Under the pieces are notes generated by a model that worked only from the letters and a program-made list of their open reading frames with translations, did no database searches and was not told where the DNA came from. This document shows positions 6,601 through 10,156 of a stretch of 64,000 nucleotides of DNA, piece after piece; positions within the stretch are counted from its first letter, which is position 1, and the number at the start of each line of letters is the position of its first letter. The translations under genes and the position numbers were made by a program. Origin of the DNA: Hormiphora californensis (lineage: Eukaryota > Animalia > Ctenophora); the NCBI GenBank assembly GCA_020137815.1, contig CM035357.1:6014001-6078000 (forward strand), in the 5' to 3' direction.

Positions 6601-9600
6601 ACTTCAAGAAGATAAGAGTACTTTCTCTGAACTTCAAGAAGATGAGATTAATTTCTCCGAACTTCAAGAAGAAGATGAGGGTCAGGTATCACCATCTAAA
6701 GGAGAGAATGATACTCCATTCTTCCATCCCCAAGTGGTAGATGCTCCCCACAACCTTTCACCTCTAATAGAGGAAGAGATCTCATCAACATCATCATCCC
6801 CAGACGAGATATCACTAGTGGATGCAGTTCGTTCTAAGAAAGAGATCCCTTCAGCAGCTGGAACACCACCCTGCAAACCCCCCAAACCACTCATATCAGA
6901 AGAAACAAAGAGCATCATCGCCCAGAAACTAACCGATGACATTGAGTCCGCTCAGACGGCTGAGGATATGATCTTTGAAGAAGATGAGATCCAACATCTC
7001 TATCTCCCTGAGTATCGGGTGGGTGAGTTCCTGCCCAGTTTCTACCCCACCCCAGAGGGGGATACCCCCGATGATCTGGTGTTCACAACCACAGATGACG
7101 ACGATGATGATGTCTTTCCGTTATTGTTGGAGGTCTATGAAACTGTATCAGAGACGCTGGTACCAACTAGGAACAGGGAGGATACTCCACCTAGTTTGTC
7201 AGAATCCCCAACACCTGGAGGAGGGGATGATGATCTTTCCCCAACACCTGGAGGAGGAGATGATGATCATTCTATACCTAGTGTTCCTGAGTTTACTGAT
7301 AGTCCAATTCCAGCACCAGCAGGGTTTTCTGATGGGCTCTCACCGGAGCTAACACCTCGACCACTGAGTGGAGAAGAAGTTGTTTCCAGCACAGGATGTC
7401 CAGTGAGTAGAGAAGAAGATAATCCAGTCTCCAGCATCAGCACGGCTGGAGAAGAGAATGTAGTTTCCAACACGGCTGGAGAAGATAATATAGTTTCCAA
7501 CACGGCTTGTCAGACAGAACCAGCACTGTGGAACTTGTTACCATCAGCTGCACGTGCTCCTGGCTCCCCCACTAAGATGAGAGTGAGGTCAGCTGCTACT
7601 GCACAGGATGTTTCTAACATTGAGACTGGTGCACAGGATGTTTCTAACATTGAGACTGTTGCACGGGATGTTCCTACTACTGAGACTGACAGTTCTCTTG
7701 GTGAGAAACACCAGATAACCACTTCCCCAACTAGTGCAGTTAACTCTTCCCCTACCCAGACAGTTCAGCCAGAGTTATTGTCCTCAGATCCCCAGACAGT
7801 TCAACCAGAGTTGCTGTCCTCTCCTTCCCAGACAGTTCAACCAGAGTTGCTGTCCTCTCCTTCCCAGACAGTTCAACCAGAGTTGCTGTCCTCTCCTTCC
7901 CAGACAGTTCAACCAGAGTTGCTGTCCTCTCCTTCCCAGACAGTTCAACCAGAGTTGCTGTCCTCTCCTTCCCAGACAGTTCAACCAGAGTTGCTGTCCT
8001 CTCCTTCCCAGACAGTTCAACCAGAGTTATTGTCCTCAGATCCCCAGACAGTTCAACCAGAGTTGCTGTCCTCTCCTTCCCAGACAGTTCTATCAGAGTT
8101 GCTGTCCTCTCCTTCCCAGACAGTTCAACCAGAGTTGCTGTCCTCCCCTACCCAGACAGTTCAACCAGAGTTATTGTCCTCAGATCCCCAGACAGTTCAA
8201 CCAGAGTTATTGTCCTCCCCTACCCAGACAGTTCAACCAGAGTTATTGTCCTCAGATCCCCAGACAGTTCAACCAGAGTTGCTGTCCTCTCCTTCCCAGA
8301 CAGTTCTACCAGAGTTGCTGTCCTCTCCTTCCCAGACAGTTCAACCAGAGTTGCTGTCCTCTCCTTCCCAGACAGTTCAACCAGAGTTGCTGTCCTCTCC
8401 TTCCCAGACAGTTCAACCAGAGTTGCTGTCCTCTCCTTCCCAGACAGTTCAACCAGAGTTGCTGTCCTCTCCTTCCCAGACAGTTCAACCAGAGTTGCTG
8501 TCCTCTCCTTCCCAGACAGTTCAACCAGAGTTGCTGTCCTCTCCTTCCCAGACAGTTCAACCAGAGTTGCTGTCCTCTCCTTCCCAGACAGTTCAACCAG
8601 AGTTGCTGTCCTCTCCTTCCCAGACAGTTCAACCAGAGTTATTGTCCTCAGATCCCCAGACAGTTCAACCAGAGTTGCTGTCCTCTCCTTCCCAGACAGT
8701 TCAACCAGAGTTGCTGTCCTCTCCTTCCCAGACAGTTCTACCAGAGTTGCTGTCCTCTCCTTCCCAGACAGTTCAACCAGAGTTGCTGTCCTCTCCTTCC
8801 CAGACAGCACCATCAGCCGCTTTATTCAGTACTGATTCCCAAACTACTCAAGTTGAGTTGACTTCCTCTGATTGCCAGACCATTCCAGCAGATCTATCTT
8901 CTATTGACTCGCAGACCGTTCCAGCGGATGTTTCAAATTCTCTAACTCAAACCCCCCAAACTGAGCTCAATACAGCGCCGACTCAGACACTTCAAACTGA
9001 GCTGAGTACTACCCCCTCACAGACCCCCATTACCGAACACAGTACCGCTCCCACCCAGACCACCGCAGCAGAACTCTGCTCGTCTCCATGCCAAACAGAG
9101 CGATCTGAACAATCTACCTCGCCTTGCCAAACAGAACCCCTTCCTACCTCCACTTCTATCTCCCAAACGGATTCCAAATCCAGCTCTACAACTGTATGTC
9201 AGACTGAACCCCTCCCCAGTTCTACAACTGTATGCCAAACAGACCAAAGCAGGCTTCATTCAGAAGTGGGATCCTCTCAAACGGACACCACAGAAGTCAA
9301 CACATCTGACAGCCAGACTGCCGTTACTCCTCTTACAGAATCAGTCTCCCAGACTGAGACGTCAGAAGTAATCTCTGGATCATGTCAAACGGAACCACCA
9401 CCCACCTCCTCTCCAGTGTTATGTCAAACCGACACCTCACCTGTCACGTCTCAGACAGATCTGATTTCCGTTTCTCCCGTGACCTGCCAGACTGAGGGGA
9501 CCCCAACATCAGCTGTGACCTGCCAGACAGAGGGAGCTGTCAGAGCACCCGCTCAATGCCAGACTGATCCGCATTCCTCATCCGCTCCGGTAGATTGTCA

Positions 9601-10156
9601 AACCGACCCCACTCCTTCCTCCCCGGTAGATTGTCAGACAGAGGCTCAAGAAATGTTATCGAGTGACAGTCAAACTGATCCCGTTGCCTTCGCCCAACCT
9701 CCCGTTCCTTCGTCAGAATGCGAGGCTCAAACAGAGATACCGACTTCAGAATCAGATTCCCAGACAAACCAACCTACCTCAACATCAGACTGCCAAACAG
9801 AGATCTGTGATCGGTCCTCAACCCCCTGCCAGACAGACCCAACTGCACGGTCCACCAGCACACCCTGCCAAACAGAGACAGGATACTCCTCCTGTAGTGG
9901 CGATCTCACATTCGAGAGTCAGGGATGTCAAACAGCAGCTGATACCTCATCGACCCCAGTTTCAACCCAAACACCCTCCTTCTCGGAGAGTGTATCTCCT
10001 ACTAAAGAGATATCTCCTACTAAAGAGATATCTCCTACTAAAGACATGAGGCTGTCCTCTCCAGGGATTAGGCCGGATAGTTCTGATAGTCAGGAGTGGT
10101 TTGATACTATCCCAGGGAGGGATGAGGGAGATGATCTTACTGTTGTACAGCCATTG
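3623..10156 (+). CDS. Giant 6534-bp exon: acidic, S/P/T-rich disordered region with QT-repeat array
   Basis: Acceptor cttcccactAG at 3622. Open frame [10 protein letters not shown]… continues into ORF 3719-10204. Donor TTG|GTGAGT at 10156/7 (phase 0). No stop in 2178 codons. Confidence 0.85.

Follow-up and report, generated by a model that had tools for sequence, protein, structure and literature searches.

The window analysed here, a stretch of 64,000 nucleotides from the ctenophore Hormiphora californensis (NCBI GenBank assembly GCA_020137815.1, contig CM035357.1, positions 6,014,001 to 6,078,000 of the forward strand), harbors a giant exon whose translation carries QT dipeptides at a spacing of about 12 residues. 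As judged from the sequence comparisons described below, this array is real, selected and lineage-wide among the comb jellies compared, and we suggest that it probably constitutes a multivalent LC8 ladder in a nesprin-like protein.

The giant exon and its QT array

The open reading frame from position 3623 to 10204 on the plus strand codes for 2193 aa and comprises a 6.5-kb exon; if this exon were left unspliced, translation would end at the stop at 10204. The exon starts with the residues DIYKH, which correspond to residue 433 of the Mnemiopsis protein P0005, and its match to this protein has an E value of 2e-61. The product is likely to be a disordered, acidic chain rich in S, P, E and D. 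Within the array S, T and P together make up 48–49% of the residues, no Pfam domain is found, and the region is located upstream of the membrane helix. The exon and the elements within it are as follows:

3623..10156, plus strand: giant internal exon of 2178 codons, phase 0 at both ends, with an AG acceptor and a GTGAGT donor
7133..7159, plus strand: landmark peptide VYETVSETL, which is followed by the array in all five sequences compared
7496..7519, plus strand: lone upstream motif SNTAC-QT-E, which conforms to the motif rules
7751..8807, plus strand: young homogenised array of 30 QT units of 36 nt (12 residues)
8808..9975, plus strand: old diverged array of 33 [C/S/T]-Q-T-[E/D/P] motifs placed about 12 residues apart, with QT at 8840–9973

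The reading frame contains 67 QT dipeptides, 64 of them between positions 7500 and 9975. The young array accounts for 30 of these and the diverged part for 33, and one stands alone at 7511. The initial annotation had counted 29 near-identical and about 31 diverged motifs, which is correct within two units, and the motifs it quoted as examples (TTVCQTE type) are present in the sequence. Tandem Repeats Finder describes the young array as 29.4 copies with 93% matches (7751–8807). The frames 7719–8861, 7744–8835 and 8220–8825 (minus strand) were rejected as by-products of the 36-nt period, as they end where the array ends, and a register of the young unit on its second Q was rejected because of the Pro at +1.

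In the old part the 33 QT dipeptides stand against 8.2 ± 2.4 in 10,000 composition shuffles (maximum 19), and 24 of the 32 gaps between them measure 11–13 aa, 18 of these exactly 12 aa, while 3.2 gaps of this size are expected (maximum 11 in 20,000 random placements). Of roughly 32 register slots, 31 are filled by an in-register QT. The motif occurs at chance level in the controls, that is, in the upstream 1070 aa of the giant exon and in five further long frames of disordered type from this gene. Seven different codon pairs encode Q-T in the old units and a single one in the young units; among the old units identity at the third codon position (0.48 for Q and 0.29 for T) is at chance, as are the linkers. 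Since QT is retained despite saturation of the silent sites, we conclude that the QT peptide is under selection in the old part. Thus, the earlier proposal of selection on QT and its spacing is backed by both the silent sites and the gap statistics.

The young unit is most similar to the first old units (0.53–0.67 nucleotide identity), and the similarity drops to about 0.3–0.5 further along; it therefore appears to have expanded recently from that end, most likely by slippage. In public contigs, among the changes listed, none of 11 substitutions within the array falls in codons −1 to +2, six of ten changed codons are silent, and the one deletion (3 nt) is in frame.

Motif quality and the array in orthologues

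By the rules given in PMC6607443, the Q of an LC8 motif is flanked by residues that are small and uncharged (−1 and +1) and followed at +2 by D, E or P; position −4 is polar, position −3 is large, and proline is excluded from the motif. The scoring applied here is rule-based and follows these rules, not the LC8Pred matrices. In the old units position −1 is S, T, C, A or V in 31 of 33 (Cys in 16) and charged in none, position +2 is E, D or P in 25 of 33 (background 0.27, p 8e-9), and a polar residue is found at −4 in 24 of 33. Against an LC8 motif, no unit has K or R at −3, or Asp at −4 or −3. Small uncharged residues on both sides of the Q are present in 31/33 old and in 25/30 young units. An internal Pro (−4 to −1) occurs in 15/33 old units and in all 30 young ones, and the hard motif rules are passed by 14/33 old units and by none of the 30 young units. 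The young unit carries Pro at −2 in 25 copies and at −1 in five, Val at +2 in 29/30, and D, E or P at +2 in 0/30. The initial annotation had already named Pro at −2 in the young repeats as unfavourable for binding. A peptide of EIF3C with the same combination of Pro at −2 and Val at +2 did not bind LC8 singly, and many anchor-bearing peptides failed to bind LC8, as reported in PMC6607443.

Overall the window motifs are not depleted of Pro (16/165 vs 19/132, p 0.28). Nevertheless, in the old array Pro is found in 2/99 residues at −1, −3 and −5 and in 14/66 at −2 and −4, with a p value of 6e-5 that is overstated, as the units are related. Such an alternating avoidance would be compatible with an added edge strand. 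Of the roughly 60 LC8 sites proposed initially, the array and the motif grammar are present, but only 14 old and no young units pass the rules; judged by sequence, 60 sites is an upper bound, and the part most likely to be functional is the old array, with 14 to 33 candidate sites. The 30 young units would bind LC8 only via cooperativity, or would serve as a spacer. A search of viral contigs for the LC8 pattern found none.

Searching with the front of the giant exon yielded four proteins among 6089 candidates (P0005–P0008). P0005 is Mnemiopsis leidyi ACHWQZ_G004368 with 3597 aa, and P0006–P0008 are single-frame proteins; longer homologues (3839–5000 aa) were not found among 780 candidates. A Q-anchored array follows the VYETVSETL landmark in 4/4 orthologues found, and its unit sequences differ, with QA, QS and QC beside QT. 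Conservation in orthologues had been named as a check on the array, and it holds for the motif class: Q-anchored motifs stand at the equivalent place in four orthologues, whereas QT itself is not conserved. Strict motifs number 8, 9, 9 and 8 in P0005–P0008 vs shuffle means of 2.0, 2.0, 0.9 and 0.6, and upstream of the array within the exon they occur at chance level. Counted loosely, P0005 and P0006 have 15 and 17 motifs, which is inside the shuffle range (maxima 18 and 19), and P0007 and P0008 exceed all shuffles. The Q periodicity is 13 in P0005 and P0006, and gaps of 11–14 aa make up 26/32 in P0005, 23/30 in P0006, 6/18 in P0007 and 4/11 in P0008.

Proline is nearly absent from positions −5 to −1 of the orthologue motifs (3/310 vs 32/248 at +3 to +6, p 3e-9, where the search pattern itself fixes −1), and this near-absence at strand-forming positions is LC8-motif grammar. 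When the motifs of P0005 and P0006 are aligned, the anchor Q is kept in 14/18 and position −5 in 4/18; P0007 contributes motifs such as DKDT-QS and DKSV-QS. The homogenised repeats are poor at −1 in both P0005 (Glu, 0/18 pass) and P0006 (Gln, 0/14 pass), so that together with the Pro/Val units of the window the poorest anchors are located in the recently homogenised block in three lineages. Either a tolerated spacer expanded by slippage, or weak cooperative sites are in use. Beyond these orthologues, a HMMER search with the old array against 1.84 billion representatives returned two unrelated repeat proteins, one of coiled-coil type and the other a caspase carrying SQTQ repeats of 12 residues, and a search of the ESM Atlas gave no usable match.

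The spectrin rod, the membrane tail and the exon connections

Downstream of the giant exon the window contains the following exons:

10456..10555, plus strand: small exon (100 nt) whose frame appears to be broken by one base relative to the orthologue, skippable in frame
11133..29745, plus strand: eleven spectrin-repeat-like rod exons, from comparison with P0005, starting at 11133, 19485, 23532, 26840, 27094, 27460, 28106, 28624, 28972, 29331 and 29615
35501..53705, plus strand: eleven more spectrin-repeat exons with 28–83% identity to P0005 residues 3034–3533
54307..55321, plus strand: last exon, with a second acceptor at 55138, a membrane helix at 55172–55228 and a 30-residue KASH-like tail that ends in PQPH

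P0005 is collinear with the window exons from 3623 to 55318. In this protein Pfam finds CH domains (E 3e-34, two stretches) and Spectrin (E 1e-18, 68.2 bits vs a cut-off of 29.9), with Spectrin_SYNE1 at 23.9 bits below its cut-off of 35; in the window the Spectrin model matches one exon with E 0.009. Each of the 24 small exons was also compared alone with P0005. All 24 have an AG acceptor, 23 have a GT donor and the last ends at the stop, and the best P0005 matches are in the expected order, for 11133–11189 by four residues and for 10456–10555 weakly. One spectrin-like exon is 97% identical to the Pleurobrachia bachei model P0002, which marks the window as coming from that genus or close to it. 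A single exon of disordered type, with the CH domains ahead of it and the spectrin rod behind it, supplies about 2000 of the 3600 residues of the Mnemiopsis orthologue; CH exons were not found in positions 1–3622 of the window and are presumably located upstream of it.

The last exon is 53% identical to the final 60 aa of P0005, and its long and short forms match the Mnemiopsis models P0009 and P0005. Both the window protein and P0005 end with a hydrophobic 19-mer followed by 30 residues, in which Cys −25, Pro −12, Tyr −5 and the terminal PQPH are shared by the two genera. Known KASH tails are described, in bioRxiv 10.1101/2020.06.19.161265, as having a PPPX end, Tyr −7, Pro −11 and a luminal Cys. 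PPPX and Tyr −7 are absent here, and searches of Pfam KASH and of the PDB with the tail gave no match. Thus, the spectrin exons 10–45 kb downstream, on which the initial naming of a nesprin relied, are real, but the tail agrees only in part with a KASH peptide; because of the PQPH end and the lack of a Pfam or PDB KASH match we term the protein nesprin-like and not a proven KASH member.

As to the connection of the exons, the donor of the giant exon (GTGAGT, phase 0) lies 48 nt ahead of the stop, and three Mnemiopsis models are likewise in phase 0; model P0010 is devoid of the 46 aa matching exon 10456–10555. Close to the start of exon 27460–27707 the frame is, as assembled, apparently broken by one base. 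This exon cannot be skipped in frame, and if the break were real the membrane anchor would be lost. Further frame changes relative to the P. bachei model are found at 30221–34556, which suggests that the frame breaks in the window are assembly indels. Public contigs of four of the six runs listed (X1, X2, X3 and X6) were compared with the region 8850–28800. Those of X1, X2 and X3 (oligo-dT library) span 9501–9975 with 95–100% identity, which documents presence, not transcription, and a contig of X6 lies on exon 26840–26923, and its loose ends look similar, on visual inspection, to the two neighbouring exons; over 8850–28800 none of the contigs of these runs joins the giant exon (10156) to a later exon. 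From the Mnemiopsis orthologue model and the collinearity of the exons, the array exon appears to be joined to a protein with CH domains, spectrin repeats and a membrane anchor.

The probable LC8 ladder, known systems and alternative readings

The LC8 dimer has two grooves, in which the Q-anchored motifs of two client chains are bound as added beta-strands (PMC5963919), and closely spaced weak motifs can load LC8 cooperatively into rods, as described for KANK1 (PMC12803091) and Nup159 (PMC5963919). In KANK1 the linkers between the motifs measure 3–4 aa (PMC12803091, a preprint); a motif of 8 residues and a linker of this type together give the 12-residue period of the window array. We suggest that LC8 dimers would zip two protein chains together along the array. 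By a worm-like-chain estimate the old array (388 aa) would thereby change from a coil of about 12 nm to a rod of about 90–130 nm, and by simple scaling both arrays together would change from 17 nm to 170–250 nm. Such a rod would have the spectrin rod at the nuclear envelope on one side and the actin-binding N terminus on the other, and LC8 loading would alter the reach and stiffness of this stretch.

Among the systems compared, the linker L2 of KANK1 (preprint PMC12803091), a long disordered linker with many weak motifs in an adaptor between membrane and cytoskeleton, is similar to the probably disordered array region; at least 15 LC8 dimers are reported there on motifs that do not bind singly, and a rod of more than 50 nm is proposed. 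Unlike KANK1, the array has 33 to 63 candidate sites, which are nearly all Q-T anchored, tandem-duplicated and part of a CH–spectrin–anchor protein. Human ASCIZ/ATMIN with 11 sites and yeast Nup159 with five (PMC5963919) share with the array serial Q-anchored motifs and have two chains threaded through LC8 beads, as proposed here for the array; Nup159 is found at the nuclear envelope. Both have far fewer sites and are not spectrin-repeat proteins, and ASCIZ is described as having uneven linkers and low occupancy. Panoramix, checked as a many-site LC8 client, has two sites according to PMC7861614.

The giant nesprins nesprin-1G/2G, Msp-300 and ANC-1, as described in PMC4284225, have in common with the protein the paired CH domains (seen in the Mnemiopsis orthologue), the spectrin repeats and the single C-terminal membrane helix with a short tail; the giant, likely disordered exon, the PQPH tail and the candidate LC8 array set the window and Mnemiopsis protein apart. 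The KASH protein UNC-83 of C. elegans offers a further comparison, as it binds DLC-1, the LC8 homologue (PMC2953438, PMC4284225). UNC-83 differs in having one DLC-1 region near the KASH domain, which acts in dynein recruitment, and no long periodic array.

Other readings have to be weighed. The ladder might bind LC8 away from the nucleus, as a cytoplasmic actin-binding scaffold, if an isoform lacks the anchor (by read-through to the stop at 10204 or by truncation at the frame break in 27460–27707) or if the tail does not bind SUN. The two downstream frame breaks as assembled, the lack of a contig joining the giant exon to the next exon, the tail without PPPX and Tyr −7, and the fact that the spectrin link rests on the Mnemiopsis gene models P0005, P0009 and P0010 speak for this possibility. 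Nevertheless we consider it unlikely: the phase-0 donor 48 nt before the stop is strong, the corresponding exon end is joined to spectrin exons in the same phase by three Mnemiopsis models, splice sites and order are kept in 24 downstream exons, the membrane helix is followed by a 30-residue tail with identical Cys, Pro, Tyr and terminal Pro positions in both genera, and the frame changes relative to the P. bachei model at 30221–34556 suggest assembly indels.

Alternatively, the register could be selected for a role without LC8, for example another motif reader, metal binding or acylation of the cysteines, or a repeat that self-assembles or is elastic. Position −1 holds 16 of the old array's 20 cysteines, and the most expanded units of three lineages have poor LC8 anchors, which would fit such a role; Cys at −1 is, however, not kept in the orthologues, which instead share the published LC8 pattern of small-Q-small-[D/E] with a polar −4 and no Pro upstream of Q, including P0007 motifs such as those given above, and this reading appears improbable to us. 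A third reading, which we regard as highly improbable, is that the exon is under weak constraint and its array is no more than a neutral minisatellite, a spacer of mucin type or a cluster of SQ/TQ kinase sites. In its favour, the young block consists of simple 36-nt tandem copies that use a single anchor codon pair, the S+T+P content is 48–49% and the copy number varies widely between species. The retention of QT in 31 of about 32 slots at saturated silent sites, the arrays of differing sequence at the same location in 4/4 orthologues and the cytoplasmic position relative to the single C-terminal membrane helix stand against this reading. SQ/TQ cluster domains are substrates of ATM/ATR. In the young block there are 22 SQ and three TQ dipeptides, whereas in the old part the 16 CQ, which are not phosphorylatable, equal SQ and TQ together (11+5); an SQ/TQ cluster was rejected as the main reading, as CQ accounts for half of the anchors in the old array and it is the residue after the Q that does not vary. 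Thus, a neutral, mucin-like or kinase-cluster origin is largely refuted for the old array, and for the young block alone it may apply.

LC8 ladders as such are a known device, the largest described having 11 (ASCIZ) to at least 15 (KANK1) sites. If the array is indeed an LC8 ladder, its 33–63 sites would add an LC8-dependent means of setting how far a nuclear tether reaches and how stiff it is, in the earliest-branching animal lineage. A more far-reaching version, in which all 63 units including the weak ones load LC8 cooperatively, giving a switchable rod of 170–250 nm on the nuclear surface and an evolvable ruler of repeat count in a LINC-type complex, is in our view unlikely; if true, the rod would be four times the largest LC8 ladder described, and tether length would be tuned by independent tandem expansions (a 12-residue unit here and a 13-residue unit in two lineages). 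In the literature on nesprin or KASH proteins with LC8 and on ctenophore nesprins, with subscription papers thinly covered, no such array was found reported. The comb-jelly series of about 12 to 63 units, with strong and weak, homogenised and diverged motifs, makes the effect of motif strength and linker length on cooperativity testable. LC8 sequences were also obtained from metagenome loci, and one of them (L007) matches solved LC8 chains with an E value of 5e-58.

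Exon structure of the nesprin-like gene

The nesprin-like gene contains a second large disordered coding block at 30221–34556 on the forward strand, which has no QT array. When this block is compared with the Pleurobrachia bachei gene model that matches the spectrin-like exon (P0002), the identity is piecewise about 70–99% and frame changes are present. The Mnemiopsis models are without a counterpart of the block.

Two exons (10456–10555 and 27460–27707, both +) each carry an apparent one-base frame break and are otherwise conserved; these breaks appear to be either assembly errors or a real null allele. 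The last exon has two acceptors, at 54307 and 55138 (+), which correspond to the long and the short Mnemiopsis model (P0009 and P0005, respectively). The optional part between them is Cys/Gly-rich in Hormiphora and Mnemiopsis alike.

Intronic features and a neighbouring gene

The introns harbor two long open frames, for which a Pfam search gave no match and which are possibly alternative or terminal exons of the gene, as well as repeats and mobile elements:

20988–22175, +, long S/P/T-rich open frame
51442–52116, +, long S/P/T-rich open frame
about 12830–14145, long inverted-repeat element
about 15050–17880, duplicated block, repeated to 19340
15577–16472, tandem duplication of 445 bp
24506–25150, −, fragment like the integrase end of an LTR retrotransposon (by eye)
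39157–43238, −, intact-looking LINE-type element

Reading the open frames of the LINE-type element by eye, we found a frame of 1049 aa resembling endonuclease/reverse transcriptase and, upstream of it, one of 360 aa. An exon of a neighbouring gene is also present:

62843–63319, +, asparaginase gene exon (Pfam PF00710, E 5e-27)

A tandem array in an unrelated caspase

The unrelated CARD-caspase P0004 has a 12-residue tandem array with SQTQ at residues about 125–280, between the CARD domain and the caspase domain, which is possibly a further LC8-type ladder.
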